Below are positions 27,213-58,478 of a stretch of 64,000 nt of DNA, piece after piece. The first letter of the stretch is position 1; the number at the start of each line of letters is the position of its first letter. Source of the DNA: a virus (lineage: Duplodnaviria; Heunggongvirae; Uroviricota; Caudoviricetes); the IMG/VR virus record IMGVR_UViG_3300032167_000002, positions 152,286-216,285 of that record, one strand, 5' to 3'. The notes below the pieces were generated by a model. It did not search any database and was not told the origin of the DNA. It saw only the letters and a list, made by a program, of their open reading frames with translations. The position numbers and the translations under genes are program-made.

Positions 27213-27238
27213 TTAATCACTTCCTTTACTTTCTATAT

Positions 27239-27269: not shown

Positions 27270-27272
27270 AAA

Positions 27273-27297: not shown

Positions 27298-27300
27298 TAC

Positions 27301-28472: not shown

Positions 28473-28475
28473 ATC

Positions 28476-28994: not shown

Positions 28995-29012
28995 TGGAGT
29001 CTACTCCTTTCT

Positions 29013-41279: not shown

Positions 41280-42170
41280 TCAGCATTTTTTGCCATAATC
41301 AGTCTCCATATCCCACAGAGCCATATAAGGACTCTTATCCAAATCCCACTCGTCAGCGTAAGTACACTGGTCATTCCACCGATTCCAGATGCTATCCAAA
41401 TCTTCATAATCCATATAGAACTGTTGAACATGAGGCCGCTCAATCCGGTCTGCATGGAAATGACCGAAAAGCCATACGTTCCAATCGAAAGTATCCTTAA
41501 CCTGGTTCATCCACCATTCCATAGAGGTATCTACAGTAGTCTGGTCAATGCAACCAAGAAAGAGGTCAGTAGGCTCCCAATCAAAGGGACAGGTATGAGT
41601 GAGCACAAGGTCAAACTTCTTGCCAACATTACTCTCCTGGATGGCAGTCATTTCCTCTTGGGTTAGACACTCATCTTTAAACCAGCCGCATTTCTTAGGG
41701 TCTGCAATAGCCCCATCAGTCGCAGAGTATCCGGCCCGAATGAGCCGCCAATACTTATCAACAGAATAAGCTCCGCCGATGACTAGAGTAGGATGACCGT
41801 CGATGACATAATTGCCACCATCGGCAAAATACCGAATATTGGGAAATTCTTCTTCCATCCAAGTCATATTACCAACTTGGAAATCGTTTTCAAGGTGCAT
41901 TCCGGGGATAAGTTCGGGCCGCTGTTCATGATTGCCCCGAACGCAGTAAATCTTAACACCCATATTGTTAAGCATTTTCTTATGCTTCTTGTCAGTTTTG
42001 TTCAGATAGAAGTTTAGACCAGCGTCACCTAGAATGATGACTCCGAGTTCACCATCTTCAAAACCGGGGTTATTCCGTTTAATATTGCTAATCCGAGTGA
42101 TGGTGCTGACTCCACCGTGAGTATCACCAGTGATAATCCACTTTTTAATCATCATCATTCTCCTTTCCAC
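41280..42170 (-). CDS. Calcineurin-like metallophosphoesterase (paralog 4)
   Basis: ITGDTHGG...ILGDAGLNFY...GNHE motifs. Confidence 0.65.
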   Translation of the reverse strand: MERRMMMIKKWIITGDTHGGVSTITRISNIKRNNPGFEDGELGVIILGDAGLNFYLNKTDKKHKKMLNNMGVKIYCVRGNHEQRPELIPGMHLENDFQVGNMTWMEEEFPNIRYFADGGNYVIDGHPTLVIGGAYSVDKYWRLIRAGYSATDGAIADPKKCGWFKDECLTQEEMTAIQESNVGKKFDLVLTHTCPFDWEPTDLFLGCIDQTTVDTSMEWWMNQVKDTFDWNVWLFGHFHADRIERPHVQQFYMDYEDLDSIWNRWNDQCTYADEWDLDKSPYMALWDMETDYGKKC

Positions 42171-42180
42171 TTTTCTATAT

Positions 42181-42211
42181 ATATTATAACATATTTTTTT
42201 ATAAAAATCAA
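42181..42211 (-). promoter_or_regulatory. Stereotyped sigma-70 promoter
   Basis: Same motif, placed after the terminator at 42215-42237 (AGGGAGCCTTATTCAGGCTCCCT). Confidence 0.6.
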
Positions 42212-42222
42212 AAAAGGGAGCC

Positions 42223-42648
42223 TTATTCAGGCTCCCTTCTCATATTACTTAAATCTTCAAACCAACCGCCATGTGGGTATTTTTCAGTTGCAGGTTGGTG
42301 CGCCCATCGTATGCCACCAGGCACAGGCTCATCATACATATCAATTTTTGGAAAATCTGGGTCAGGCTCTACATTTACAGGCGGAACATAAGGAGTCATA
42401 TCTCCATCTTTTAAGAATTGGATAGGACTTCTTGTTCCATCTTTCTTGATTGCCCAATAGGTTTGTGCTAGTTGAGTTTCTCTGCGAATTCGTTCCGTTT
42501 CTTCTGCTACACGAGTGCGCTCAGCACTTACATAACACTGAAGGGCCTGCCGCACAAGGCAATCACCGGTTTCGTCCGCAAAAGCACAGGACCTCCCCTA
42601 ACACTCTACAAACTGAGAGTGTTCCCAACTTTTTAATGGACACTTCAT
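42223..42648 (-). CDS. Hypothetical protein with an in-frame TAG at 42598-42600
   Basis: The ATG at 42648 overlaps the upstream TGA (ATGA). MKCPLKSWEHSQFVEC[TAG]GRSCAFADETGDCLVRQALQCY... runs in the same frame as the track ORF 42223..42555. Confidence 0.5.
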
Positions 42649-43532
42649 ACTTTTAGCTCCTTTTCTACAGAAATACGCATGATGTTGTAAGAAACGTCCT
42701 CCAAAAGCTCACGAACCCAAGCTTCTTCTTGGTCAGGGTGAGCCGCGCAGAACTCATCTGCGATTTCAACAACATGGTCTAAGATTTCTTTCGCAAGCAC
42801 TCGAGCTTCCTCAAGAGAGTACACGCTCAGCATTTTGAAATCCATCATTCTGGGTCTACGGCTGCTAGTAGGGATTAAGCAATCCTTGTAAGCCTCACCA
42901 GCGATATATCTCTCCAAGTAGTCATCTACTCTATCCAAATGAGATACTTGCTTACCATCATAGCCATATTTGTCGATGATATCAACTTTTGCGGGGTATC
43001 TATGTTCCATTGCGTGATATTTCTCCATCGCAATACCCTTCATAGATTTAACCGCACGATGGACGTTCATACGAGCGATGAATTCACGGGCCGCAACTAG
43101 TCGGTCCCACTGTTCCCTATACATCGGGTTGATGATATAGAAATCAGTAAACAGAATCTCAAGGAAGTTGAGGTTCTGTTTGCGGAAAGTTTCCATATAC
43201 AGACGGATATCTTTCCAGTCAGTATGCTCATCATTTGCTCGGACATGAGTAGTAGAAACGGGTTTCTTGTTCAAGCAAATGTCCTTGAAACTCGGAACTA
43301 CAATCAATTTGGTATCAACGTCAGAACCCTCATAGTCCAGCTCATAATTCTGACTACCCTGTAAGAACACACCTACGATTTGCTCTTCTGGAAAATACTG
43401 AAGTGCTTCATCATAGTGGTCTTGTACTCGCTTCATAATAAGGGCCGCACGGATTTCTTTAGGACTTGCGATATAAGTTTTTGCAGCCAAATCCGCGAAT
43501 GCTTTTTCAATTTCAGGATAATCTTTGGTCAT
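42645..43532 (-). CDS. Pol-beta-superfamily nucleotidyltransferase domain protein
   Basis: GSQNYELDYEGSDVD fits the NTase GS...D.D motif. Confidence 0.45.
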   Translation of the reverse strand: MTKDYPEIEKAFADLAAKTYIASPKEIRAALIMKRVQDHYDEALQYFPEEQIVGVFLQGSQNYELDYEGSDVDTKLIVVPSFKDICLNKKPVSTTHVRANDEHTDWKDIRLYMETFRKQNLNFLEILFTDFYIINPMYREQWDRLVAAREFIARMNVHRAVKSMKGIAMEKYHAMEHRYPAKVDIIDKYGYDGKQVSHLDRVDDYLERYIAGEAYKDCLIPTSSRRPRMMDFKMLSVYSLEEARVLAKEILDHVVEIADEFCAAHPDQEEAWVRELLEDVSYNIMRISVEKELKV

Positions 43533-43550
43533 TGCGACCCCCTCCTTTCT

Positions 43551-43883
43551 TTAATCATCAATATCGGAACGATATAGTTCCAAATCTCCATAATATCCAG
43601 AGTAAAAGAGCGTAATTTCAAATGAACAAATGGGGCTTTCAAACTTCATCCAGGTATCCTGTTGCCAGCCATTTTCATCCATATCATAACGCTCCCAGTG
43701 CATTTCTTCTAAATAGTCAACGACTTTAGCAGGAGAAATATACGAACCATGGAGCCAATCTCGTAGGTTAATTTTTTCTTCTTTATTCTGTGCGAGCCTA
43801 TCAATCGCATAGTTAAGGATAACTAAATTCGTAGAATGTTCCAGCTCCGCATAAAGTTCTTTATATGATTTGGGAGTTTCCAT
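43551..43883 (-). CDS. Hypothetical protein
   Basis: 110-aa track ORF. Confidence 0.3.
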   Translation of the reverse strand: METPKSYKELYAELEHSTNLVILNYAIDRLAQNKEEKINLRDWLHGSYISPAKVVDYLEEMHWERYDMDENGWQQDTWMKFESPICSFEITLFYSGYYGDLELYRSDIDD

Positions 43884-44239
43884 TACCTATATCTCCTTTC
43901 CAGAGCTTCAAGAATTTCAATGGCAGCTTCGCACAGGTCAATGTAGCTTAGTCCACGGAATGCAGTGTTAGGACAGTTATTAGAAGTTTCTCTTGCAAAA
44001 ATTTCTTCTACAAGCTCACACAGATAGCCAGCTTTATCACCATCATGGTCATAAACCTGGCTTAAAAGACGAGAAGTTATAGATTTAATTTCCCAATCCA
44101 AACCCAGCTCACCAAATCCCCACAGCTTACCTTGGACAGTAATCCAAGTTTTAGCCGCTTCATCGTCGGCACAAATATTATAATAAGTACAGGGCTTTTT
44201 GCCCGCACGCCAAATTTCAAAAGCATATTGCTTAGGCAT
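43883..44239 (-). CDS. Hypothetical protein (start trimmed to MPKQYAFEIW with SD GGGGAG)
   Basis: Track ORF 43883..44287 with an internal SD-linked ATG. Confidence 0.3.
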   Translation of the reverse strand: MPKQYAFEIWRAGKKPCTYYNICADDEAAKTWITVQGKLWGFGELGLDWEIKSITSRLLSQVYDHDGDKAGYLCELVEEIFARETSNNCPNTAFRGLSYIDLCEAAIEILEALERRYR

Positions 44240-44513
44240 TAGGTTCTCCCCATCCTTCCTCAAAATCTTCTTTGAGTACATACTCAACTAATACTTTATT
44301 ATCTCCACAAAGCATAGTCTGTAAAATGACAACATCTTTAACACAGTATCTATTAATGAATAGCTTAGGCTCATCATCAAATAGAGAACTATTAGCATCA
44401 AGATTGCGGATAATCATTTTGCTCTTGGGGTGGGATTTGCGGAGCGTACCGCTGACCGCATTTACATGATAGTTAAAATGGCTACCGCCAACATGAACAT
44501 TTGTATTAAGCAT
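44232..44513 (-). CDS. Hypothetical protein
   Basis: 93-aa track ORF. Confidence 0.3.
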   Translation of the reverse strand: MLNTNVHVGGSHFNYHVNAVSGTLRKSHPKSKMIIRNLDANSSLFDDEPKLFINRYCVKDVVILQTMLCGDNKVLVEYVLKEDFEEGWGEPNA

Positions 44514-44811
44514 CAGTTGTTTCCTCCACCCATTGATTATATTTATCTAACATTAGTTGCCAATAATTGGCTCTTTTCGTTAACGTTTGCCGAACGATTT
44601 CAACAGCTCGCTTCTTAGCAGCTTCAAAATCTTCAGCATTAATATGAACTTTAATATCGGTAAAGCCTCTATCATACCACCAAACAGTGTATCTATTTTC
44701 ACCAATTTTGGCGACAGAAATTTCACATTTATTCCTATTAGTAGGTTTGCCCCAAATGGCAGACCAACATTCAAAGCCTTCGGGTCGATAGTCATGATAT
44801 TCCCATTTCAT
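44506..44811 (-). CDS. Hypothetical protein
   Basis: 101-aa track ORF. Confidence 0.3.
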   Translation of the reverse strand: MKWEYHDYRPEGFECWSAIWGKPTNRNKCEISVAKIGENRYTVWWYDRGFTDIKVHINAEDFEAAKKRAVEIVRQTLTKRANYWQLMLDKYNQWVEETTDA

Positions 44812-44812
44812 A

Positions 44813-45196
44813 TTACTTTACCTCCGTCCAGCCATTTCGCTGAATAATTGCCTGCATTCTCTGTCTTGCCACAGGATTAGCAGAATGAATACGAATAGGA
44901 ACATTGTGACCAGTAGCTTCCAGCCAGTCCAAGAGCTTATAACCTTCGGGAATACCTTCGCCTAGGTCATTGTCGCAAGAAACTTCTTCGATATTGAAAA
45001 CTGCGAAGCACTTTTCAAACAGCTCTCGCTCCATATAACCCATGATATACTGCTTCCAGAGGAAGTCAGTTTCTTTTTTACAGCGGATAATCTCGCAGAT
45101 GGCGCCATCAACGTCATAAACTCGAATATATCCGGCCGGTGCGGGACGCACATCATCCATCCAAATCTTCATTGAGATTATCCTCCGTTTCTCCAA
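44813..45196 (-). CDS. Hypothetical protein
   Basis: 127-aa track ORF. Confidence 0.3.
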   Translation of the reverse strand: MEKRRIISMKIWMDDVRPAPAGYIRVYDVDGAICEIIRCKKETDFLWKQYIMGYMERELFEKCFAVFNIEEVSCDNDLGEGIPEGYKLLDWLEATGHNVPIRIHSANPVARQRMQAIIQRNGWTEVK

Positions 45197-45274
45197 AATA
45201 ACAGCCGTCTCGGCTTTCTTTCATTTCACAGTCTTCCCAATAGACACATTGAGAACAAATCACAAAGTCTCCCA

Positions 45275-45620
45275 TTATTCCTCCCGAATCTTAAAAGGAC
45301 ACCAATCGGGCACGGGAGGCATTTCGCTATCATACTCAATGTATCCAGTGATTTTGCGAGGTCCATTGGAAGTCTGACAGGCATTACAGTAGTAATCAAA
45401 AGCGAATCCAGCTCTTGGAGTGCGAGTTTCCTTAACACAAGGACATTCGTCGCATCGGCCAACGCCGATTACTACCATTGCGGCAGGCTCGAAAGAATGG
45501 TCGGAACAGTGACCCTTATCGCACTTGTATCCTTCAACATCGCACTTTTTCAGTTTACAATAAATTTTATTGCTATCCTCATAAGGAACACAATGCTTAC
45601 ACAGGACTCCTCTTTTCATA
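45275..45620 (-). CDS. Cys-rich protein (start trimmed; the N-terminus of the track ORF translates the promoter)
   Basis: MKRGVLCKHCVPYED...CDKGHC...CDECPC...CNAC. Confidence 0.35.
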
Positions 45621-45690
45621 ACCATCTTCCTTTCTATTCTTTGTATATATATTATATCATATTTTTTATAAAAAATCAATAAACAAAAAA

Positions 45691-45717
45691 AAGGCAGACT
45701 CATTAAGAGTCTGCCTT
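45691..45717 (-). terminator. Terminator hairpin AAGGCAGACTCATTAAGAGTCTGCCTT
   Basis: Stem-loop followed on the minus strand by T8. Confidence 0.6.
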
Positions 45718-45933
45718 AATATAATTGTCTGCATTAACAATAAAATCAATCATGTCCTTTGCTAAAATTTCTTTTTGTTCTAAAGAAATATCTGGTATTG
45801 GCATAGACAATATAACCTAATAATCTAGAATGTTTTTGCGAGGAGGGTAAAATGATAAAAATCCAAGTGTTACATCTCCATCTAGTGATTCCGCTCGGTA
45901 AATTACTTCTGGATTGTTGTCATATAATAACAT
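45703..45933 (-). CDS. Small hypothetical protein with an in-frame TAG at 45817-19
   Basis: SD AAGGAG before ATG 45933. MLLYDNNPEVIYRAESLDGDVTLGFLSFYPPRKNILDY[TAG]VILSMPIPDISLEQKEILAKDMIDFIVNADNYIKADS. TAA at 45703. Confidence 0.45.
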
Positions 45934-46204
45934 AAAAATTCTCCTTTCCAAGAACTATTATTCCTTTTAATGTTGAAAAATAAAATAATAAAATTGATTA
46001 TATATGCCCATTTACAATTAAAAATTAGTTAGGCCATTTTTAGTTTTGGGTTTTCGGCCCTTTCGACTGAGGCCGGCCGGAGCAGGTCTATTGCTCTTAT
46101 AAATGAGCAAAAAAAAATCCCTCCCGATTTCTCGGAAGGGAAAAGAGACCGATTAGTGAATAACGGCGTAGCGCTCGCTGTTCAGCCTCTCCATCATCAG
46201 GTCA

Positions 46205-46426
46205 TCACTGCTTAGGTTGGCGACTCTTAATGAGATTACTGTTAAAGATACGAGCATTCTCATTATAGGTTTCACATTCTTTGATAAAGGCATCATAACG
46301 AGCCTTTTTACCAGCCTGTGCCTTTTCATACATTTCAGTCATATAATTGACTTTATCCATATTCAAGGCATATTTACCACGAGCAGGCTTAACCAGATAG
46401 CCAAACTCATAAAGTTTATTAAACAT
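46205..46426 (-). CDS. Hypothetical protein
   Basis: 73-aa track ORF. Confidence 0.3.
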   Translation of the reverse strand: MFNKLYEFGYLVKPARGKYALNMDKVNYMTEMYEKAQAGKKARYDAFIKECETYNENARIFNSNLIKSRQPKQ

Positions 46427-46505
46427 ATAACTGCTTGTGGTAGAGTCTTTAGCAGCATTAAACTCAGCTGGAGTAAATACTTTATCAGTGCCGCCGCATT
46501 TTCAA

Positions 46506-47456
46506 TTAGCGGATACACTCATAACGAGGGGAGTCCAGCTTCTCAAACATCAAATCCAGACCAGTCTTGCCGGACATAATCTGCTCGAAGATGGAAGGAG
46601 ACATACCAGACACATAGGAAATGTTGCCAACTCCAATGTCCTCGGCATGGAAGCAACGGGTTGCCTTGTCAACAACCTCATAAGGATACAGGTCCTTGGC
46701 ATTAACCTTGGTAGTAGTATCCTTTGCGAAATCCGCATAAGTCTTAACCTCGGGATTGCGCTTCATACGCTCAATGTCATGACGAGCAAAGGCGTTCTTA
46801 TACTTTAGACCTGCCTTGGAAGGAATCTTGTCGAACTCGATTTCATCCCAACGACCCTCAGACATCAGACGCTCCAGGACGTTGATGCGGGCACGCAGAA
46901 CAGACAGAGTCTTACGATACTGCTTGGGAGTCATACCCATAAAGGCACGAACCTTTGCGGCAGTCTTACGAGTCTTAGCAGAGCTGGTGTTCTCGGAAGG
47001 CATCCACTTACCCAGCAGAGAGGGAGTCTTACACTGGACGTCCAGAGCCAGCTGGTGCTTAACGATGTTCAGAGCCTGGGTCTCCAGAGGAGTACCGATG
47101 AACACGAACAGGTCATCCCAGCGACCGAACTCAGGAACGTGAATCAGGTTGCGCTGCATAGCGTCGGTATTGTAGGAAGCCAGCCACTTGGTCGCAACAC
47201 GGAAGAAACGACGCTCACCCTGGCCACCACGCACGTCACGGATGTAGAACAGACACTTCAGCGCATAGGTAGGATCCTCGGCGAAGGCGTTCTTGAACAG
47301 CAGGATAACATCCTCGTCAGAACGAGTACGGTAGGCCGCACCCATGGCGAAGAGATCCAGCAGAGCATTCATAGTAGACTTGTGGGTAACTGCACCATTC
47401 TCAGTCAGAGTGTAGTTGGTAGCAGTCTTCATTCCATTCAGAAATGCATTACTCAT
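46506..47456 (-). CDS. Hypothetical protein (DUF2828/TROVE-like)
   Basis: 316 aa. The family assignment is from memory only. Confidence 0.35.
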   Translation of the reverse strand: MSNAFLNGMKTATNYTLTENGAVTHKSTMNALLDLFAMGAAYRTRSDEDVILLFKNAFAEDPTYALKCLFYIRDVRGGQGERRFFRVATKWLASYNTDAMQRNLIHVPEFGRWDDLFVFIGTPLETQALNIVKHQLALDVQCKTPSLLGKWMPSENTSSAKTRKTAAKVRAFMGMTPKQYRKTLSVLRARINVLERLMSEGRWDEIEFDKIPSKAGLKYKNAFARHDIERMKRNPEVKTYADFAKDTTTKVNAKDLYPYEVVDKATRCFHAEDIGVGNISYVSGMSPSIFEQIMSGKTGLDLMFEKLDSPRYECIR

Positions 47457-50362: not shown

Positions 50363-50448
50363 TGGAGTCAGCGGTGAGATTCGAACTCACGCCATTGAAG
50401 GCACGCGGTTTTGCAGACCGGGGTCTTAAGCCACTTGACTACGCTGAC
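50363..50448 (-). tRNA. Atypical tRNA, anticodon GCA (Cys-like, U73) with a long variable arm
   Basis: Minus-strand GTCAGCG...CCGGT CTGCAAA ACCG...GTGAG TTCGAATC CTCAC CGCTGAC T CCA. 86 nt with a 14-nt variable region. Manual fold. Confidence 0.45.
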
Positions 50449-50450
50449 AT

Positions 50451-50917
50451 TTATTCTTGCCACTCTTCACATTCTATGCCATTAGAGCGGAAATAATTTT
50501 GAATTACAACTCGCTCAGAGCACGGATTATCAGGAGCCTCATGCACAATAAATACTGGAATTGGTTCACCCTCATATCCGACTACTGAACGGACAGCTTC
50601 GCATAAATTGCGTGTACGAGTCATAATATCATTGATTTCCAAAAGACTTAGCTGATGAGCATATGCTTTGAGGAAATTACATTGATCGGGATTCTTATCA
50701 GAACAACTTCCGCAATTAGATACTGCGGTCGCCACCTTACCGGGCGCGAAGTCGGGCGCCCGCAATCCATTGATAACACCATTCTTATCAATGAACCAAT
50801 GTCCTTGGTCTCGATTTTGATGATACCATTTGGGGTCCCATAACGCAGTAGAAATAGGAATCATATTCGGTTTGAAAAATCGTATCTTATAGAAATAAGA
50901 TGTATAAACTTTCATAT
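50451..50917 (-). CDS. Hypothetical protein (start trimmed to MKVYTSYFYK, SD GGAGGA)
   Basis: The track ORF 50451..50984 runs into tRNA-Met, so an internal SD-linked ATG is used. Confidence 0.35.
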
Positions 50918-50929
50918 GCGTCCTCCTCT

Positions 50930-51006
50930 TGGTGGGCCCCCTGGGTCTCGAACCCAGATAGTCCCGGTTATGAGCCGGGCGCACTAGCCAATTGTACTAA
51001 AGGCCC
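50930..51006 (-). tRNA. tRNA-Met (CAT), elongator-type
   Basis: GGGCCTT TA GTAC AATTGGCTA GTGC G CCCGG CTCATAA CCGGG ... GGGGCCC A CCA. Confidence 0.75.
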
Positions 51007-51229
51007 GTGTGAATTGCCTCTTGGCGTGCTGTATTGCGTGTATTACACTAATCCTTCTTCCAAGAGGCTCATATTACCCAGTCACTAGTAAACTGTACCT
51101 AATATGATTGCAGTTTTTTGACCGTTCAAGTCTTAGTCTCGGCACTAAGGTTAACCCCTCTTTATTCGTATACTGCCAACCTTGGGAAGAGGCTCCACCA
51201 GCACTTCCGGACAAGCCCTGGCTTCATCG

Positions 51230-51260
51230 CCACCGCATTCCGCGGGATAATGGTGGATAC
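51230..51260 (-). ncRNA. tRNA 3' minihelix fragment (T-arm plus 3' acceptor plus CCA) with no matching 5' half
   Basis: CGAGG TTCGAGT CCTCG AGTATCC A CCA. No GGATACT partner upstream. Confidence 0.4.
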
Positions 51261-51424
51261 TCGAGGACTCGAACCTCGCTTTTTTCATGTAGCCTTCTGG
51301 AGAGACCCCATCCACGCTACACCGGTTTCGCGCACGCAAGGCGACAGTGGGCGTTTATCTCCACATCGCAGTTTTTACTTCCGTACTACTTACATTACTT
51401 ATCCTCCCTGTGAGGAGCTACCCT

Positions 51425-51500
51425 GGTGCCCGTTGGGGGATTCGAACCCTCGACACCCTGATTAAGAGTCAGGTGCTCTGACCAGCTGAGCTAAACGGGC
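51425..51500 (-). tRNA. tRNA-Lys (CTT)
   Basis: GCCCGTT TA GCTC AGCTGGTC AGAGC A CCTGA CTCTTAA TCAGG ... AACGGGC A CCA. Confidence 0.75.
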
Positions 51501-51672
51501 GTGGTATATTATCGTAGATAATTGTAATGTTATGCTCTTGGCAATATCCTTTCCAACAACGATAACATCTTTGCTCTCTTTCTATTGGCTCATAGCAAGT
51601 TGTTGCCACAGTGCATAAACATATTGTAGGGCATCTATGATTATCAATTTCCTTGTCAATATTGATTTCCAT
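51469..51672 (-). CDS. Small Cys-rich protein (3' end uncertain; the track ORF runs into tRNA-Lys)
   Basis: CPTICLC...CYRCWKGYC. Confidence 0.3.
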   Translation of the reverse strand: MEINIDKEIDNHRCPTICLCTVATTCYEPIEREQRCYRCWKGYCQEHNITIIYDNIPRPFSSAGQST

Positions 51673-51702
51673 AGGATTTTCCCCTTTCTTTATCTTACAT
51701 AT

Positions 51703-51733
51703 ATATTATAACATATTTTTTTATAAAAATCAA
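51703..51733 (-). promoter_or_regulatory. Stereotyped sigma-70 promoter (-35 TTGATT, 17-nt spacer, extended -10 TGATATAAT) reading leftward
   Basis: + strand tatatattataacatatttttttataaaaatcaa, the reverse complement of TTGATTTTTATAAAAAAATATGTTATAATATATA. Confidence 0.6.
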
Positions 51734-51950
51734 ATAAAATAAAAAACAGCGAATAAGGCTAATCTTTGGACTTAGGTCGGATCTGATTTCCAGATATCCG
51801 ATTGCCACTTAGTTCCAACTGTAAAACCTTATTCGCACCCCATAGGGCGGTCTCGAGGAATTTCTCCCAGTGCACTAAGGCGAGACCGGTCGAGCAATAA
51901 TGACTTGGTGCGCCGCCTGGGATTCGAACCCAGGACACCCGCCTTTTTCA

Positions 51951-52419
51951 GTCATTCGATGAAAGTATCTTCAAGTTTGAAATCTTTTGCGAAATTGATA
52001 TTCTTAGTCTGACCATTCTTTGTAGGCTTTAAACGCAATCTACAAGAACGACTACCAGCTTTATCAACTGGAACAAGATAGCACTGATGATTATGCATTG
52101 TAGCAAAATAATCAATGTCATCCGCAGAATAAGATTGATATACTGTCTTTTGAGTATTTGTATGAGAGGATTGAGTCTTAAACTCAATATAATCTTCATC
52201 TTCACTCAATGATGATGTCTTTACTTGAATACGATATAACTGATGGTTGATATCAACGATAAAGTCATAGCGACTATCAGATACCAAAGGCTTACACACT
52301 TGATACCCCAATGTCAAAAACGATTCGGCAACTTGGAGTTCAGTAATTTCACCTTGGAAATGAGTGTTTAACACTTAATTCACCTCCTGGGAAAATACTT
52401 TCTTCTCCTGTGTGAAAAG
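51951..52419 (-). mobile_element. Intron-like insertion in the tRNA anticodon loop carrying a homing-endonuclease-type ORF
   Basis: Lies between the two exon halves. The ORF stop TGA sits 8 nt before the 3' exon. Reminiscent of tRNA group I introns with PD-(D/E)XK endonucleases such as I-Ssp6803I. Confidence 0.5.
51952..52374 (-). CDS. PD-(D/E)XK-type putative homing endonuclease inside the split tRNA
   Basis: GTG start with SD AGGAGGTG. SRYDFIVDINHQLYRIQVK core. Paralogous to 56793..57200. Confidence 0.55.
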   Translation of the reverse strand: MLNTHFQGEITELQVAESFLTLGYQVCKPLVSDSRYDFIVDINHQLYRIQVKTSSLSEDEDYIEFKTQSSHTNTQKTVYQSYSADDIDYFATMHNHQCYLVPVDKAGSRSCRLRLKPTKNGQTKNINFAKDFKLEDTFIE

Positions 52420-52469
52420 GGCGGTGCTCTGAAACCTGCTGAGCTAGCGGCGCATATGAAGGGAAAAGT

Positions 52470-52496
52470 GGGATGGGCCTTTTGTTGACCCATCCC
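52470..52496 (-). terminator. Hairpin GGGATGGGCCTTTTGTTGACCCATCCC upstream of the split tRNA
   Basis: Stem-loop seen in the sequence. Confidence 0.4.
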
Positions 52497-52943
52497 GCAA
52501 GACATAAGATGTTTCTAAAAAGATCATTCTCTATGTTTGTTTGTCAAATATTGAGTATTATCATTTTGAAAATTTTGCTGTATATGTCTTGTATAAATAC
52601 TCTCCTTTGGTGGTAACTTTCATTTATGCGATGATGAGTGTCGAGAGCCTCATCACATCTACTACTGATTATCACATTCCCGGAGAGCCGAAAGTTTTTT
52701 TAGTAAAACCATTCTTCTTTCTATCATTTAAAAACGCGACTGTTAAGTCATCATAGAAGCTACTTGAAGTAGCGATCTGTACTATTAAGTACAAGCTGGT
52801 TTGCTGTATGGCTCTCAGTGTTTCTATAAATAATTACTTTTCCGTCGAGGCCACCTGTTAATAACGGAATTTGCGAGCTAGCCCTCCTCGAGCTTCTATC
52901 CGCAATAGACGGACCAGTATCAACACCTGGCGAATTATTTATA

Positions 52944-53018
52944 TGGAGCGGGTAAGGGGAATCGAACCCCTCTATCCTGCTTGGAAGGCAGGCGCACTAG
53001 CCGATGTACTACACCCGC
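52944..53018 (-). tRNA. tRNA-Gly (TCC)
   Basis: GCGGGTG TA GTAC ATCGGCTA GTGC GCCTGC CTTCCAA GCAGG ... CACCCGC T CCA. Confidence 0.75.
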
Positions 53019-53105
53019 AAAGAATGGGGCACTCCGAGGAATGCCCCCGAGAAGATAGGAACTTTAAAGAAAGGGGAGAAGATTTTTTCTTTATTTCCTG
53101 TACTA

Positions 53106-53136
53106 TTATTATACCAAAAAATTTTTGAAAAATCAA
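53106..53136 (-). promoter_or_regulatory. Stereotyped sigma-70 promoter reading toward tRNA-Gly
   Basis: + strand tattattataccaaaaaatttttgaaaaatcaa. Confidence 0.55.
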
Positions 53137-53137
53137 C

Positions 53138-53434
53138 TCATTTTCTAATGAACCAACGACGATATTCTTGATATGCTTCTTCGCGATCGGGAAATTCGGA
53201 ATATCTCCAATCCCACTCGTACCATCTTTTGACGAGACTCTCCCAATATTGCTCGAAAGAAGTGCCGACTGTTTCATAGTCGCAAATATCATATTGGCAA
53301 AACACCTTTTTGTATGTATTACCTTTAGGATGCTCGTCGATGGGAAGACGGCGCACTTTGCGATTAGCATATCTTTTAAAGAATTTGTCTTTTGTATCAC
53401 CCGAGCGAGGGGTGTGTTTGAATGATCTACTCAT
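53138..53434 (-). CDS. Hypothetical basic protein
   Basis: 98-aa track ORF, co-transcribed with tRNA-Leu. Confidence 0.35.
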   Translation of the reverse strand: MSRSFKHTPRSGDTKDKFFKRYANRKVRRLPIDEHPKGNTYKKVFCQYDICDYETVGTSFEQYWESLVKRWYEWDWRYSEFPDREEAYQEYRRWFIRK

Positions 53435-53511
53435 TACTTCTAACCTCCTTTACGGTAGTTAGAAGACACTCAACCTCCACATTGGAAACACATCCTTTCA
53501 ATAAAGATAAG

Positions 53512-53598
53512 TGGTGCCGGCGACCGGACTCGAACCGGTACGGGCACAGGCCCAAGGGATTTTAAGTCCCTGGTGTCTACCTATTCCACCACGCCGGC
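53512..53598 (-). tRNA. tRNA-Leu (TAA), type II
   Basis: GCCGGCG TG GTGGAATAGGTAGACAC CAGGGA CTTAAAA TCCCT plus a long variable arm ... CGCCGGC A CCA. Confidence 0.75.
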
Positions 53599-53698
53599 AG
53601 ATTTACAAGGCTCATTTTTTTTCTCTCAAGCATTACCAATTTTATGTCGGTTAGAAAAAGTGAAATTTGCTGTATGAGCCTTTCTTTATCTTCTATAT

Positions 53699-53729
53699 AT
53701 ATTATATCATATTTTTTTATAAAAATCAA
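53699..53729 (-). promoter_or_regulatory. Stereotyped sigma-70 promoter immediately downstream of the suppressor tRNAs
   Basis: + strand tatatattatatcatatttttttataaaaatcaa. Confidence 0.6.
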
Positions 53730-53741
53730 CTTTCCGCACAA

Positions 53742-53816
53742 TGGCGGGGGGCCTGGGATTCGAACCCAGCCACAACGGTTTTAGAGACCGCCGCGCTACC
53801 GCTACGCTAACCCCCA
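53742..53816 (-). tRNA. Amber suppressor tRNA, anticodon CTA, tRNA-Gln-like (U1.C72 open pair, G2-C71, G3-C70, G10, G73)
   Basis: TGGGGGT TA GCGT AGCGGTA GCGC G GCGGT CTCTAAA ACCGT TGTGG CTGGG TTCGAAT CCCAG GCCCCCC G CCA. + strand tag at 53782-84 inside tttagag. The acceptor end resembles tRNA-Gln(CTG) at 59382..59457. Confidence 0.8.
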
Positions 53817-53891
53817 TGGCACCGGCGCTCTGACTCGAACAGAGATATGCGGGGTTAGAGCCCGCCGTCCTAGCCATTGAACGACACCGGA
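53817..53891 (-). tRNA. Second suppressor tRNA, anticodon CTA, with Trp-like D and T arms (G73, U1.U72)
   Basis: TCCGGTG TC GTTC AATGGCTA GGAC G GCGGG CTCTAAC CCCGC ATAT CTCTG TTCGAGT CAGAG CGCCGGT G CCA. + strand tag at 53856-58. Abuts the first suppressor with no spacer. Confidence 0.7.
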
Positions 53892-53920
53892 ATATTCCAC
53901 AAGGCACAATTTGATATTTA

Positions 53921-53950
53921 ACGGCGCTCTACCATCTGAGCTACGACCCC
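53921..53950 (-). ncRNA. tRNA 5'-half fragment (acceptor plus D-arm) with no anticodon or T arms
   Basis: GGGGTCG TA GCTC AGATGGT AGAGC G CCGTT..., then unrelated sequence up to the second suppressor tRNA. Confidence 0.4.
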
Positions 53951-53954
53951 TATA

Positions 53955-53995
53955 TGGCAGGGGCGGTAGGATTCGAACCTACGACTTCCGGCTTG
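53955..53995 (-). ncRNA. tRNA 3'-half fragment (variable region, T-arm, acceptor, CCA) directly after the leader motif
   Basis: ...AAGCCGGAAGTC GTAGG TTCGAAT CCTAC CGCCCCT G CCA. Not complementary to the adjacent 5' fragment. Confidence 0.4.
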
Positions 53996-54040
53996 GCAGG
54001 CTTAATCAATAAATTGCTGTTTATGCCTTTATCTTATATT

Positions 54041-54071
54041 ATATTATATCAAAAATTTTTTATAAAGTCAA
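54041..54071 (-). promoter_or_regulatory. Stereotyped promoter variant (-35 TTGACT)
   Basis: + strand atattatatcaaaaattttttataaagtcaa. Confidence 0.5.
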
Positions 54072-54334
54072 TTATTGGGTTGAGGCAAATCTTCCCAGAT
54101 AGTAGATTCTTCAACGCAATCACACTCAATAATTGCGTCATCATTTACCGCCTTAGAATACCAGAGTTTGTCGCTACCAAGAATATAAGTTCTTTTTTCT
54201 TGAATAACATATACTTCACTACCCATAGCGAGTTCTGCTACCTTTAAAAGTTTTACATCATCTGCAGTGTCTGCTACAAATTGAACATAATGAGATTGGT
54301 AGCGATTATTCTAAAAAACTTTAATACTAGCCAT
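54068..54334 (-). CDS. Small hypothetical protein with an in-frame TAG at 54311-13
   Basis: SD AAAGGAAAA before the ATG. MASIKVF[TAG]NNRYQSHYVQFVADTADDVKLLKVAELAMGSEVYVIQEK...EDLPQPNN. TGA at 54068. Confidence 0.45.
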
Positions 54335-54529
54335 ATTTTCTCATTTTCCTTTCTATAAAAATTTTTTCATTTCGCTAAATTTTTCTTTTATTGCGACCTT
54401 TACCTTCAGCAATATAGCGTTTCAAAAATTTACACCCCGAACAACCATTTCGATTTTTACAACACCAACAACCATCTGTGTCGGGCCAAAAGTAACGAGG
54501 AGGCTGCGGCCGCATCTTGCGGTGCCCCA

Positions 54530-54859
54530 TTATGCGTAACGATTGCGCTTGTGTTTAGGCGCAAAATAACCGGCTTCGCGCAAATCTTCATCCATAGCAA
54601 CTACCTTCCGCAAATCGGAGGCACGATAAAGAATTGCTTGATTATAGTTTCCGCTTCTGTGTCTCTTGGAACCCTTGTTGCGAGTTTTGGTATTGCAATC
54701 GGGACAAGAACAATGGATTTTGTTTTTTGAATACTGATGGAGATTATTATACCAAGGAACAGGTTTTCCATCATTATAACTGGTTTTGTGCTGAATGTCA
54801 ATTCTACGCTTTCTCTTGGCTTTACGAATTGATACATCTCTATTATAAGCACCAATCAA
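54530..54859 (-). CDS. Hypothetical basic protein
   Basis: 109-aa track ORF. Confidence 0.3.
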   Translation of the reverse strand: MIGAYNRDVSIRKAKRKRRIDIQHKTSYNDGKPVPWYNNLHQYSKNKIHCSCPDCNTKTRNKGSKRHRSGNYNQAILYRASDLRKVVAMDEDLREAGYFAPKHKRNRYA

Positions 54860-54966
54860 ATCACATCATCCTCTCTATTTAGTTTAGGCTCAGTCGGTTT
54901 GGGCGGGTAGCACCAAACATCTCCTCGACGTCGACGAAGGTATTCTTCTTCTTGAACTACAACTGA

Positions 54967-55055
54967 TGGCGGACAGGGAGGGATTCGAACCCCCGGAGCA
55001 TTACGCCCGCCGGTTTTCAAGACCGGTGTAATAAGCCAGACTCTACCACCTGTCC
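54967..55055 (-). tRNA. tRNA-Ser (TGA), type II
   Basis: GGACAGG TG GTAGAGTCTGGCTTATTAC A CCGGT CTTGAAA ACCGG plus a long variable arm ... CCTGTCC G CCA. Confidence 0.75.
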
Positions 55056-55092
55056 ATCTCTATTGAAGGGGCATAGCGCCCCTTCTATCGAA

Positions 55093-55455
55093 TTACATCT
55101 TTGCCAGAATCTTCTGGAGATCACTCTGAGCTTCACAAACCTCAGCACAGGCATCAGCATTGTATTGAGCCATATCATCAACATACTTCTGGGCCATCTT
55201 CAGCTGCTCATGAGCCTTCTTCAGCAAGCGAGCGGAACGAGCCTGACGCTTGCGGGCGATCTTCTCAGCGCAGCGGGCAATAGCCAACTTCTTGCCCTTC
55301 TCTTCATCGTAGGTATCATTCTCGTGAACGATTGCATTTCCCTTTACAACCTTACCGGCGTAAGTGGAATAAGCGATGATTTCAGTGGTCTTGTAGTCCT
55401 TATGCTGATGCACAACAATATTGTACTTTTCAACTGGATATCTCATTTTCTTCAC
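55093..55455 (-). CDS. Hypothetical protein
   Basis: 120-aa track ORF. Confidence 0.3.
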   Translation of the reverse strand: MKKMRYPVEKYNIVVHQHKDYKTTEIIAYSTYAGKVVKGNAIVHENDTYDEEKGKKLAIARCAEKIARKRQARSARLLKKAHEQLKMAQKYVDDMAQYNADACAEVCEAQSDLQKILAKM

Positions 55456-55531
55456 CTTTTACTCTTTTTTATTTGTGGGAGTGTCAAAAAGGGTAACTCG
55501 TAAGTTTGCTCCCAGAACGAGTTTTCACCAT

Positions 55532-55606
55532 TGGAGCCCCGACCCGGACTTGAACCGAGAACGGAGGATTACAAATCCACTGTTTTACCGATTGAACTAT
55601 CGGGGC
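55532..55606 (-). tRNA. tRNA-Thr (TGT)
   Basis: GCCCCGA TA GTTC AATCGGTA AAAC A GTGGA TTTGTAA TCCTC ... TCGGGGC T CCA, with one anticodon-stem mismatch. Confidence 0.65.
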
Positions 55607-55735
55607 ATAAACAAGACCCTTTTCATTTATTACGCGGATTCGAACCGCTAAATTTTCATTTGAAGTAAAAATTATTATCCAAGAAAAAAGATTGCAGGAA
55701 GGGTCTTTTTTTATTTATTTTCATTTCTTATGTAT

Positions 55736-55766
55736 ATATTATACAAAAAAATTTTATAAAAATCAA
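55736..55766 (-). promoter_or_regulatory. Stereotyped sigma-70 promoter
   Basis: + strand tatatattatacaaaaaaattttataaaaatcaa. Confidence 0.55.
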
Positions 55767-56698
55767 GTGCGGACGGGTCGCCCAAATCCGCTGACAAGCA
55801 CACTATTGCGCGCTTTACGGACGGGCGGCCGCAAGAAAAAACCCATATTGAATTTCAAACTCTACCTACTCCATATGCGCTAACGGTCTTTCCGTCGCCA
55901 TATGCTACCACCTAACGCTCATACTTTGTCGGGTTTGTATCCGTGTTGTGACAAAATTGAGGTATTTTTACTTTCCATCGGTATTGTTTTCGATCCAATA
56001 TGGATTTTCCACTCAAAATCAATCTTTCGCTTTTCATCGCCTTACCTCAGTATTGGGCTATATTACCGAGCGCTACTCAATCAAGAATGAGATTTTTATA
56101 CTTTTATGTAATCATATAGCAGTTGCGAGTCTGTATCATTATCGCTACCCAATCTCACCTACTTATTTCGCAGTAGGGGCGCCTGGACTTAATCTTCATA
56201 TTCGGAACCCGACTCAGTTTATGCTCCAGGGACCTTACAGCAGAGGGATAATTTGCTTACAACATAGACCGTAGACTATGAAGAAGAAATTATCGTAATA
56301 TCAATTCATACAACTACTGCAATCTGATTATTCAACCAGACCGGTCAAAAGAGAAATCAGCAAACTCTTACCTTATCTAACGCAATAAGGAGCGTTGAAT
56401 TAGATGTCTGATACGTATCAGCACGGGCCGGGATGTATCGTTTCACCACAGTCACCAGGCGAAAGGAAAAAACCTCACCTAATCCAAATGCCACCAAGAA
56501 CCTTCAGCCATAGGAGCAGTTCTCACGTCATTACCCTAACGAGGATTTGGGAACTCATTTCTGAGCTTTGCATCGTACCCCGCCTATATTCGCAGCGAAT
56601 GGCATTCTATTTGATTGTAGAAGTTTTTGGAAGAGAACGATAACTCTAAGCGTTTCATTTTGACTTGTACGCATAACTATGTCTAGGCATGGAGCCTA

Positions 56699-56784
56699 TG
56701 GTGGGCCAGGTAGGACTTGAACCTACAATGTCATACGAACCCGATTTACAGTCGGGGGTGGTACCAATTACACTCTACTGACCC
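56699..56784 (-). tRNA. tRNA-Tyr (GTA), type II
   Basis: GGGTCAG ... CCCGA CTGTAAA TCGGG TTCGTATGACATT GTAGG TTCAAGT CCTAC CTGGCCC A CCA. Confidence 0.7.
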
Positions 56785-56792
56785 ATATGGTA

Positions 56793-57200
56793 TTACAAAG
56801 ACACCATATATTGATAAGTTTGGAAACCTTGTCCATTTGCAGATTTTTGAGTACGCAAAGAAATTTGTTTACTTACTCCATAATCTCGCAAATCTTGCAC
56901 TGGAATAACATACATATGCATTTCGCCATCTAAGCAGAACAAATAATCAACAGGATGATTTAGTACAGAATCATAAACACTACCTTTTGTGCCACCCGCA
57001 CTCTTCATAGAAACTACATTATCAGCACTGCCAGTTGCTTTACATTGAACGGTTTTGAACTCACCGTCTTTTTCAATAACTAAATCATACCATTGAGTAT
57101 CATTTAGAGGCACATTTACTGTATATCCATTGGCTCCAAAATAAGCGATTGCTATCGCCATACCAGCGCGACCCTTATCACGATTAGTTTCAAATAACAT
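56793..57200 (-). CDS. PD-(D/E)XK-type putative homing endonuclease, paralog of the tRNA-intron ORF
   Basis: ...GANGYTVNVPLNDTQWYDLVIEKDGEFKTVQCK... parallels ...TLGYQVCKPLVSDSRYDFIVDINHQLYRIQVK... in 51952..52374. Abuts tRNA-Tyr. Confidence 0.5.
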   Translation of the reverse strand: MLFETNRDKGRAGMAIAIAYFGANGYTVNVPLNDTQWYDLVIEKDGEFKTVQCKATGSADNVVSMKSAGGTKGSVYDSVLNHPVDYLFCLDGEMHMYVIPVQDLRDYGVSKQISLRTQKSANGQGFQTYQYMVSL

Positions 57201-57534
57201 AATAAAAACCTCTTTTCTTTTAGTTTCTACTATACTTCAAAACCAAATCAAATAAATTATCCAACGCCGGCCACGGTGTCCGCCGAAATATATAATGCCT
57301 TGTCAAAGTATATGTCTAACCTCAGCTTTGACTACCTACCGGTCTGCGCTCGTCCCGGGTGGAACCCAGATCGCTTAGACACTTCCCGACGCATCGTGAA
57401 AACGGGTCCGGTGCAGGCACCGGTCCTTGGAGGCTCAATACGTCACGCGAGGACTTTCGCTATAGCCTTGTTCAACAAAAAAGTTATTTATACGCAGTAG
57501 CGGCTAACTCTACTACAACAATAACCTTGGGCCG

Positions 57535-57593
57535 TGGTGAGGGACCTTGGACTTGAACCAAGAAGCCAATAAGGCGCCGGATTTACTGTCCGA
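57535..57593 (-). ncRNA. Partial Tyr-like tRNA (anticodon arm with GTA, long variable arm, T-arm, 3' acceptor, CCA) lacking a pairing 5' half
   Basis: TCGGA CAGTAAA TCCGG CGCC TTATTGGC TT CTTGG TTCAAGT CCAAG GTCCCTC A CCA. No GAGGGAC 5' strand within 600 nt. Confidence 0.4.
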
Positions 57594-58412
57594 TTTGAAT
57601 TGCTGTTAGCGGCTTTAGACCAAGACACTATTCGTTTCCGGTCCGGTGCGTCTACCAATTCCGCCAGTCCACTCATATTGAGAACTTTGAAAAGTTTTGC
57701 TGTCCTTCGACATACTCTCTATAACCTTCACCTATATTCGATCACTAGGGAGACAAGTCTGAGCTCAAGGGAGCGACCCTTAAACTTCTTGCCCCAGCTC
57801 CTACTGGAGCCAAGTCCTACACAGGGTTGTTTACCTGTAACTTTCACCCGCCATTCAGAATTATTTGATAATTTTTGCTATTACCCAAATACACTAAACA
57901 GCAATTTCTTTCTTCTCGTCATTGCGATAGGGCTACTCGTACCCCGACCTTACCTTATAGCCCGATTACTCGGACATCAACGCAGACTCTCTTATTGGTA
58001 TACTATGGTTTGAAACAGTCACCAGCTAATCCCTAACATAGCTTATTCCCCACAGGGGCGTCTATTGCGAGAGCGATAAGACGGTATCTTTAGATGCGAT
58101 TATCTTTGCACTCCTCTCCATCCAGGCCCCTCCGTTCGGAGGGCGGCCCGCACACATCACTGTATGCAGATCTACCTATTACTGGCTATCGTCAGTAAAT
58201 TGCTTTTCGGACTCCTGGCGCCCACGGGCAGGATGAGGATCTCGGCACGATGGTATTCGTTCTTCACCGAGGTGCAAAACTTTTCAAGGTTCAAACTGAT
58301 ATTAGTCGAAATCGCAACCACCAGGCTTACTCAGCGGAGGGTTATCAGTTATCGGTTGCTTCAAGGCAGGTTTAATCGTTTTCTAGAATGGAGCGTCAAG
58401 AAATGGATTATG

Positions 58413-58427
58413 ATTGCTGTGTCTGCC
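58413..58427 (-). repeat. Conserved transcript-leader motif, minus-strand GGCAGACACAGCAAT; one of at least 8 copies in the tRNA region
   Basis: + strand ttgctgt[a/g]t[a/g/c]tg[a/c]gcc also at 52571-87, 53665-80, 54011-27, 60228-43, 61137-54, 61680-96 and 62382-97. Usually 25-35 nt downstream of a promoter -10. Confidence 0.5.
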
Positions 58428-58445
58428 TTTCTTTATCTTACATAT

Positions 58446-58476
58446 ATATTATATCATATTTTTTTTATAAAATCAA
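58446..58476 (-). promoter_or_regulatory. Stereotyped sigma-70 promoter feeding the long noncoding stretch 58430-57240
   Basis: + strand tatatattatatcatattttttttataaaatcaa. Confidence 0.55.
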
Positions 58477-58478
58477 GT

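Follow-up and report, generated by a model that had tools for sequence, protein, structure and literature searches.

Archaeal bulge-helix-bulge introns, some of which carry homing-endonuclease open reading frames (ORFs), are cut by EndA and joined by RtcB, and the intervening sequences of bacterial 23S rRNA are excised by RNase III without re-ligation. The chemistry of group I introns, among them the cyanobacterial tRNA-fMet intron with its endonuclease I-Ssp6803I, needs a terminal G in the intron and a U at the 5′ splice site. Among bacterial tRNA group I introns, lengths range from 184 to 894 nt, all those with endonuclease genes being >500 bp, and genes of the Pfam family PF11645 occur in the group I introns that interrupt tRNA-Arg(UCU) in Bacteroidota and Campylobacterota (PMC13011429). 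In phage T4, SegB is a free-standing homing endonuclease of the tRNA region (PMC13096335). The present study concerns a tRNA-Lys(UUU) gene in the tRNA array of a Caudoviricetes virus (IMG/VR record IMGVR_UViG_3300032167_000002, positions 152,286 to 216,285; these 64,000 nt are hereafter the window), which is split in its anticodon loop by an insertion encoding a PF11645 endonuclease. The element is best described, from sequence comparison, as a mobile endonuclease-bearing tRNA-gene insertion, a known kind of element, which belongs with the I-Ssp6803I family in its protein and target but not with group I introns in its RNA architecture. No report of such a phage tRNA arrangement was found in the literature searched, in line with an earlier reading of the window without database searches (the sequence-only reading), to which none was known from a phage tRNA array.

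The split gene lies on the minus strand (52453–51906) and is interrupted by 469 nt (52414–51946), its three parts being as follows.

52415..52453, minus strand: 5′ exon, 39 nt (sequence; ARAGORN intron mode; same as the intron-less allele in the viral contig L010)
51946..52414, minus strand: insertion of 469 nt, an intron-like mobile cassette between nucleotides 36 and 37 (comparison with the intron-less allele)
51906..51945, minus strand: 3′ exon (sequence; same as the intron-less allele in L010)

The 5′ exon reads GCGCCGC-UA-GCUC...GAGC-A-CCGCC-CUUUU and provides the acceptor 5′ strand, the D arm, the anticodon-stem strand (CCGCC, 52424–52420) and loop nucleotides 32–36 (CUUUU, 52419–52415, with the anticodon UUU at 52417–52415). 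The 3′ exon, AA-GGCGG-GUGUC-CUGGG-UUCGAAU-CCCAG-GCGGCGC-A-CCA, provides A37 and A38, the stem, variable loop, T arm and acceptor strand, A73 and CCA. In L010, whose flanking DNA is 79–96% identical to the window, the same tRNA gene is uninterrupted, with the loop CUUUUAA. Deletion of 52414–51946 in silico yielded a 79-nt sequence identical to the L010 tRNA-Lys(UUU) at 79/79 positions, a match of the split gene that is evidently far beyond chance. Based on this identity and the loop CUUUUAA, the gene is therefore tRNA-Lys(UUU), with the insert between U36 and A37. A tRNA gene split in the anticodon loop had already been proposed in the sequence-only reading, and the excision product bears this out; its exon coordinates hold overall, save that the 5′ end was one base off (52453, not 52454), and its distance of 8 nt from the TGA stop to the 3′ exon is right relative to GGCGG, the true 3′ exon beginning 6 nt after the stop. 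Its statement that the anticodon could not be fixed from sequence is overturned by the intron-less loop of L010. The split gene was overlooked by the ARAGORN default mode and the Rfam tRNA model, both of which list 24 other tRNAs of the array (50363–63674), and was recovered by the ARAGORN intron mode. The register given by that program (CU/AAAAA, corresponding to Phe-AAA with an intron at 33/34 ending in G) was rejected because the intron-less alleles fix the site at 36/37.

The insertion is made up of a 40-nt leader ending in a Shine-Dalgarno (SD) sequence, a 140-codon ORF, its TGA stop and 6 more nt, its noncoding part thus amounting to 46 nt (40 before the ORF and 6 after it).

52381..52388, minus strand: SD sequence AGGAGGTG, 6 nt upstream of the GTG (sequence)
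51952..52374, minus strand: endonuclease gene, 140 aa, GTG start, TGA stop (ORF list; PF11645; 2OST; invariant D37, Q50 and K52)

The ORF product matched PF11645 (PDDEXK_5) over residues 3–134 (E=1.5e-31, 109.7 bits against a cut-off of 26.1) and I-Ssp6803I in PDB 2OST (E=1.9e-8), with YDFIVD...IQVK aligned to YDLVFD...VQVK, and the residues D37, Q50 and K52 were invariant in the alignment of relatives. These matches confirm, at the level of sequence, an I-Ssp6803I-family PD-(D/E)XK homing endonuclease, as the sequence-only reading had predicted for the ORF. The endonuclease is encoded at its putative target site, and intron-plus and intron-less alleles coexist in related genomes (six pairs). 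I-Ssp6803I itself reportedly leaves 3-nt 3′ overhangs.

Besides the window and L010, five further intron-plus/intron-less pairs share the 36/37 site, with identities of 75/75, 75/76, 76/77, 75/75 and 73/73, and the six pairs span Lys UUU (two), Thr UGU, Asn GUU (two) and Gly UCC. One carrier is a cultured phage, Enterococcus phage EFP01, in which a 463-nt insertion splits tRNA-Asn(GUU), while ~29 sister Schiekvirus genomes, including EFDG1, have an intact tRNA-Asn at the same site (one carrier among ~31 Schiekvirus genomes). A presence/absence pattern of this kind, in alleles otherwise nearly the same, is what marks out a homing element, and the allele comparisons show an element that is mobile at the DNA level and targets position 36/37 of many tRNAs.

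Searches with the protein and the alignment of relatives uncovered 74 viral loci and 8 loci in metagenome-assembled genomes (MAGs). The latter, labelled Ruminococcus, Clostridia and Oscillospiraceae, were on phage-like contigs only, and the cyanobacterial control was not recovered in the scan of MAG contigs. In a large protein database, at least 196 clusters matched at E<=1e-5, none of them named. A census combining the ARAGORN intron mode with a pairing rule identified 53 distinct insertions with a PF11645-like ORF in phage tRNA arrays, 445–846 nt in length and all at 36/37; the tRNA genes that they split have 17 different anticodons: Lys UUU and CUU, Asn GUU, Thr UGU and AGU, Trp CCA, Pro UGG, Asp GUC, Met CAU, Gly UCC, Ser GCU and GGA, Val UAC, Cys GCA, Glu UUC, Ala UGC and Gln UUG. 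The greater length of the long insertions is due to a C-terminal zinc-finger/helix-turn-helix extension of the nuclease and not to extra RNA. Hand inspection added Ile GAU, Ile UAU and one UUA reader; the last of these (L045, ~1440–1970) has the excised loop UUUUAAA, whose anticodon UUA would make it an ochre reader, with the insert end UAA pairing with the anticodon. Some assignments were revised on the way, from Arg(UCU) to Lys(CUU) in L008 and L026 and from Asn/Asp to, probably, Thr(UGU) in L038 and L039.

When cut at 36/37, all 53 excision products of the census were typed by ARAGORN as tRNAs with the expected anticodon, and the nearest intact tRNAs, compared with the anticodon loop masked, mostly had the same anticodon as the split gene. 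An intact gene with the same anticodon was found in the flanks examined for only 1 of 47 split tRNAs. Several genes may be split in one array: in the 11-kb array L099, Gln, Met and Asn are interrupted by ORF-bearing insertions and Gly by a 31-nt ORF-less hairpin. The same hairpin insertion is located in tRNA-Gly(UCC), at the same 36/37 position, in L029 (2867–2971), L097 (5108–5212) and L099 (9567–9671), and may represent a cassette from which the ORF has been lost; an intron-less version of this tRNA-Gly gene was looked for and not found. The ORFs of L009 (3001–3420) and L066 (1501–1930) were at one point considered decayed pseudogenes, a reading that was dropped: their 3–4 in-frame stops are all TAG and the true stop is TAA, indicating amber recoding and not pseudogenes. 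The window has two adjoining tRNA genes with anticodon CUA (53742–53891, minus strand), amber readers that ARAGORN labels Pyl. Together, these CUA tRNAs and the TAG-bearing ORFs of the relatives point to TAG recoding in this phage group.

The sequence-only reading likened the insertion to tRNA group I introns with homing endonucleases, and the likeness to the tRNA-fMet/I-Ssp6803I intron does extend to the endonuclease family, the anticodon stem-loop target and the presence/absence mobility. Furthermore, the two sites, 33/34 in tRNA-fMet and 36/37 here, are mirror images about nucleotide 35 on the dyad of the stem-loop. A group I intron would thus account for the protein and for the kind of host site, a tRNA anticodon loop, and the U at the end of the window 5′ exon would suit it, as would the known occurrence of PF11645 genes in tRNA-fMet and tRNA-Arg(UCU) group I introns (PMC13011429). 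However, the RNA differs from that of the tRNA-fMet intron: the insert is little more than the ORF, has no ribozyme core and no terminal G, and pairs its ends with the anticodon instead of forming P1/P10. A group I core (P3–P9, ~180 nt or more of structured RNA) does not fit into 40 + 6 noncoding nt, a total of 46 nt to be set against the 184–894 nt of the known introns. Along the entire ORF, codons for identical residues were identical in only 49–72% of cases among eight Lys-type relatives, with no extended constrained block, suggesting that no RNA is hidden within the ORF. The insertion ends in A in the window and in A (22), C (12), G (11) or U (8) in the 53 relatives, and nucleotide 36 is U in the window and U (34), C (8), A (7) or G (4) across the family, so that neither a terminal G nor a 5′-exon U is a constant feature of these insertions. 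Moreover, the tRNA-fMet type of intron is known from one or two tRNA species, whereas the insertions here are in phage arrays and split 17.

Rfam scanning, the check named in the sequence-only reading, returned no group I (RF00028), group II or small ribozyme match at E<=10 in the window region, and none in 32 related loci. This negative is weak alone because the group I-like introns in tRNA-Leu(UAA) of L062, L003 and L011 likewise escaped the RF00028 model at E<=10, an insensitivity that would leave room for a group I intron; the test was therefore replaced by the arguments of size, terminal nucleotides and synonymous sites and by a local profile. The tRNA-Leu(UAA) inserts of related arrays (L062 229–665; L003 1393–1809; L011 428–1227) are ~340 nt long, lie at U34/A35, end in G and share blocks that we take to be R/S-like, and they look like group I introns on these features; the L011 copy has an HNH endonuclease ORF. 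A profile of the three gave mutual matches at E<=1e-37, but neither it nor the R/S-like motifs matched within any PD-(D/E)XK insertion. Both kinds of insert occur ~200 nt apart in L011, making the contrast with group I introns a direct one. By these comparisons the insertion is evidently neither a group I nor a group II intron, and a group I origin is regarded as extremely improbable.

What the insertions have in common is instead a predicted RNA structure at their ends, the parts of which in the window are listed here.

52409..52418, minus strand: 5′ strand of the junction helix, U33, U34–U36 and insertion nucleotides 1–6 (UUUU/CACACA) (minimum-free-energy folds; covariation in 31 relatives)
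51945..51954, minus strand: 3′ strand of the junction helix, insertion nucleotides −9 to −1 (UGACUGAAA, TGA stop included) and A37 (folds; anticodon rule)
52391..52402, minus strand: 5′ strand of the second helix, GAAAGUAUUUUC, between the junction helix and the SD sequence (folds; duplex energies in relatives)
51961..51972, minus strand: 3′ strand of the second helix, GAAGAUACUUUC, within the last ORF codons (folds; duplex energies in relatives)

In the fold of the window pre-tRNA, the cloverleaf is retained and the anticodon stem is lengthened. Proceeding outward, a C32–A38 mismatch is followed by U33–A37, by pairs of U34, U35 and U36 with the last inserted AAA, by C-G/A-U pairs of the first inserted nucleotides with UG and by a purine-rich internal loop, beyond which the 12-bp helix of GAAAGUAUUUUC and GAAGAUACUUUC sets the ORF apart as a loop. 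The three terminal nucleotides of the insertion thus pair with the anticodon and the next 6–7 with the first 6–7 inserted, producing a ~17-bp helix centred on nucleotide 35, whose pair is flanked, counting from the tRNA core, by 8 bp on one side and 7–8 bp on the other. Both junctions are 3 bp apart on opposite strands, each 3′ of the central three base pairs, and by the geometry of the predicted helix cutting both would give 3-nt 3′ overhangs. The rule that the last three nucleotides complement the anticodon holds for 17 anticodons, with the matches AAA/UUU, AAG/CUU, AUG/CAU, ACA/UGU, AGC or AAC/GUU, GGG/UCC, GUA/UAC, UGG/CCA, UGC/GCA, GAA/UUC, GCA/UGC and CAA/UUG.

Covariation was assessed in a junction-anchored alignment of 31 elements for the nine pairs involving the insertion. 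For these pairs, 88.5% of the cells were paired, compared with 37–48% when the partner was slid by 1–3 columns; double-sided changes were found in 9/9; and the covariation score was 0.81 (<=0.19 for slid partners), a value reached by 0/500 shuffles. The junction pairs 34:−1, 35:−2, 36:−3 and i1:−4 (i, position from the start of the insertion) were the best kept of the extension, being paired in 30–32 of 32 sequences. In the 32 sequences, G-U cells numbered 41 and A-C cells 1, indicating that the structure belongs to the sense-strand RNA. The C32–A38 mismatch was retained in 26/32 and U33–A37 was invariant, though the helix needs neither. For the second helix, at ~i8–i10/−11 to −14 in the relatives, cognate duplexes averaged −14.0 kcal/mol compared with −8.5 kcal/mol for non-cognate ones. 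Covariation and folding together show that the elements carry a conserved RNA structure, with both junctions held within a single helix.

Homologues of the endonuclease also occur outside tRNA genes. Distant free-standing relatives adjoin intact tRNA genes in Pectobacterium phage My1, Salmonella phage PM10 and the haloarchaeal virus HSTV-4, sharing the protein family, the place beside tRNA genes and presumably the mode of spreading with the window element, but leaving the tRNA intact and lacking a long-range helix between the 5′ and 3′ ends, whereas the window element lies inside the gene and has the helix. The free-standing genes beside tRNA genes that were folded (My1, PM10 and L078) gave z-scores of −0.4 to +0.8, compared with −4.1 for the window element, from which the helix appears to go with residence inside a tRNA. 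In HSTV-4 (a Halorubrum virus; L096 1090–1700), the free-standing PF11645 gene follows an intact tRNA-Asn and is itself followed by a near-copy of the T arm and acceptor 3′ strand of that tRNA, as if a cassette had entered the 3′ part of the tRNA-Asn gene and duplicated that part.

Archaeal bulge-helix-bulge introns resemble these insertions in several ways: both are ribozyme-less inserts in RNA genes that can carry a homing endonuclease, in both the 3′ part of the insert is base-paired to nucleotides of the anticodon loop, and in both the two junctions are on opposite strands, 3′ of a short central helix; RtcB is also present in the carrier EFP01. Nevertheless, the central helix here is 3 bp and not 4, the folds and covariation show no 3-nt bulges, and the site is 36/37 and not 37/38, so the structure fails the defining bulge-helix-bulge motif. 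The hosts here, moreover, are bacteria (Enterococcus and probably Clostridia), and we know of no EndA in bacteria such as these.

The conserved, covarying terminal structure could in principle be that of a new small self-cleaving or self-splicing RNA formed by the insertion ends (~45 + 30 nt, perhaps with the tRNA body), which would need no protein endonuclease, the exons being rejoined by a ligase or by the RNA itself. Semi-conserved nucleotides beside the junction helix, common to many members (C-G/A-U at i5/i6 and AAAC opposite CAUUG), would agree with such an activity. However, the subfamilies have internal-loop sequences of their own (window group, GGA/GAA; Asn group, UGAC/CUGAU; CAUUG group, A/CA), the regular helix in which both junctions sit offers poor geometry for in-line attack, and no Rfam ribozyme family matched at E<=10. 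Mainly because of the differing internal loops, this explanation is rated as very unlikely. Two other ideas about the structure were set aside: mimicry of the DNA target by the intron-side helix arm, as the first inserted nucleotides are on inspection unlike nucleotides 37–43, and a K-turn or box C/D-like internal loop in the Asn group, which fits in part only (1x2 extra nucleotides) and has no equivalent in the other subgroups.

The presence of genes for RNA ligases was recorded in both carrier phages examined. The window encodes a ligase of the Rnl type (33993–35411, minus strand; phrog_968, E=4e-68), a type that a search found absent from Enterococcus phages, EFP01 having RtcB instead (gp162, E=3.3e-59). 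The Rnl-type ligase is accompanied by genes for phosphoesterases, a Thg1-like protein, a nucleotidyltransferase and a Ro-like protein.

Taken together, the selection on the junction pairs, the kept decoding nucleotides, the absence of spare copies, the multiply split arrays, the 31-nt ORF-less insertion in tRNA-Gly and the ligases favour splicing. We thus tentatively read the element, with a probability of roughly 45%, as a mobile ribozyme-less intron that is removed by protein enzymes and an RNA ligase. As this would work at the DNA level, the PD-(D/E)XK nuclease, to judge from its enzyme family, would cut uninterrupted copies of the tRNA gene in co-infecting phages, probably recognising the pseudo-palindromic DNA of the anticodon stem-loop and cutting symmetrically about nucleotide 35, and repair of the cut would copy the cassette into the target allele. 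In the transcript, the extended anticodon helix would present both junctions to protein enzymes, while the internal loop and second helix would seal the ORF off as a large loop with the SD sequence exposed. An endonuclease would then sever each strand at its junction to give a 3-nt 3′ stagger, and an RNA ligase would join U36 to A37 and restore tRNA-Lys(UUU). Candidates for the cutter are a host RNase specific for double strands or for tRNA shape, or the nuclease of the cassette. The RNA junctions, symmetric about nucleotide 35 with a 3-nt 3′ stagger, have the geometry that a dimeric, stem-loop-centred enzyme would also use on DNA; that the homing endonuclease makes the RNA cuts is nonetheless considered unlikely. 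For the family as a whole, it is plausible, if at somewhat under even odds, that the inserts form a previously unrecognised class of ribozyme-less mobile introns of bacterial viruses, with the 3′ end paired with the anticodon, excision by an endonuclease and joining by a phage ligase, which would make them the parallel, in bacterial viruses, to the introns that archaea remove with proteins.

Several points weigh against removal by splicing. To our knowledge, no bacterial or phage endonuclease excises an insert of this kind, and Pfam or PHROGs scans of 41 window ORFs turned up no EndA-like gene. The internal loop beyond the junction helix varies between subfamilies, so that the elements have no one recognition motif in common. 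The RNA ligases appear to be common phage RNA-repair genes, and RtcB is probably encoded by the intron-less sister phages too. In L043 (~1465–1960), a PF11645 cassette is located in the spacer between tRNA-Leu(UAG) and tRNA-Ala(UGC), both intact, and is flanked only by an anticodon-arm-like helix (UCUGC UUUGU ... ACA AA GCAGA) without acceptor, D or T arms, indicating that the helix can persist with no tRNA to repair. Around five carriers show signs of decay, including a shortened T loop and an acceptor mismatch in L002 and L003, C56U in L054, an odd T loop in L056 and two acceptor mismatches in L063. Recent homing into good alleles, in turn, would leave the exons intact as well.

These observations could also be read as those of a selfish cassette that is never spliced and homes into individually dispensable phage tRNA genes, inactivating them. 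The tRNA halves and the extended helix would then be a scaffold, with RNase P and RNase Z trimming the tRNA-like ends and the closed fold stabilising or releasing the endonuclease mRNA, in the manner of RNase III excision of rRNA intervening sequences without re-ligation. The 23S rRNA intervening sequences are similar in that they extend a normal hairpin loop in a structural RNA by an extra stem, which is taken out through cuts in a long helix, but they carry no endonuclease gene; and whereas rRNA functions in pieces, a tRNA cut within its anticodon loop does not, so that here the halves would have to be ligated. An unspliced cassette is in keeping with the failure to find a ribozyme or a known bacterial splicing enzyme for such an insert, with the helix kept in L043 in the absence of a tRNA body and with the partly decayed look of several carrier tRNAs; the insertion in one of ~31 Schiekvirus genomes would fit a recent selfish invasion, and the identical exons of the intron-plus/intron-less pairs imply young insertions. 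On the other hand, a merely stabilising stem would tolerate loops elsewhere, whereas the tightest pairing is exactly at both junctions and has been re-fitted to 17 anticodons, with the C32–A38 mismatch retained within the helix. All 53 excised products are still accepted as tRNAs, each with the anticodon that its body would predict, an array with 3–4 of its genes split and no spare copies in its flanks would be deprived of several tRNAs together, and the free-standing relatives demonstrate that the family can adjoin tRNA genes without breaking them. Permanent inactivation, the main rival reading, is a real possibility, though well short of an even chance, and the ribozyme-less intron is the reading retained here.

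The surroundings of the split gene hold other structured RNAs. Just downstream of it, an 88-nt hairpin matching part of the OLE model (53 bits; 51749–51836, minus strand) is followed by a U-run, and the same OLE-like hairpin is located 3′ of the intron-less allele in L010 (10084–10167). Within the tRNA array, a ROOL RNA (328 bits; 57682–58295, minus strand) and a drum RNA (78 bits; 62889–62999, minus strand) were detected, ROOL being also present in EFP01 (L085 3433–4019), L007, L057 and L063. Directly after ROOL lies a tRNA-Leu-like gene (window 57535–57673, minus strand; L010 4435–4573) in which 42–52 additional nt, enclosed by a CCGGAC/TCGGAC repeat, precede the anticodon stem. The gene falls outside the 36/37 rule, and its anticodon loop differs between the window and L010 phages (CAGUAAA and CUUAAAA, respectively). 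The carrier EFP01 is rich in other intron-like or homing elements, its DNA polymerase gene being annotated in three pieces with HNH and other endonuclease genes between them (L101 24172–29479).

Downstream of the tRNA array, Pfam and PHROGs scans of the window revealed an RNA-repair-like gene set, of which the ligase described above forms one end.

33993..47456, minus strand: RNA-repair-like gene set
46506..47456, minus strand: Ro/TROVE-like gene
42645..43532, minus strand: nucleotidyltransferase
41280..42170, minus strand: phosphoesterase
39661..40401, minus strand: phosphoesterase
38624..39514, minus strand: Thg1-like gene
37241..38161, minus strand: sigma-70
36020..36928, minus strand: RNase T-like gene

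Further genes of the window (30734–33250, 17479–18987 and 23641–29840, all on the minus strand) include those for an 838-aa protein with major-vault-protein shoulder and repeat domains and for an SPFH/flotillin-like protein, and the same regions hold an NAD cluster (NAMPT-like, NAD synthase, SIR2, NADAR and phosphoribosyltransferase). The vault-like, SPFH-like and NAD-cluster genes are unusual phage cargo.

Standard tRNA finders miss split genes of this kind, and the tRNA repertoires of phages are consequently under-counted; in the 11-kb array L099 alone, four genes (Gln, Met, Asn and Gly) are hidden from them. With its nucleases re-targeted to at least 17 tRNA anticodon stem-loops, the family is also a ready natural collection in which changes of endonuclease specificity can be studied. 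The cultured carrier EFP01 and its intron-less sisters such as EFDG1 make the question of splicing directly testable. If the insertions are not spliced, a homing endonuclease would ride inside a tRNA fold while destroying the gene, with a bearing on the part that selfish elements play in shaping phage tRNA arrays. If they are spliced, they would represent a protein-dependent type of intron in viruses that infect bacteria, a pathway thought to be limited to archaea and eukaryotes, and phage RtcB and Rnl ligases would gain a role beyond the repair of anticodon-nuclease damage.

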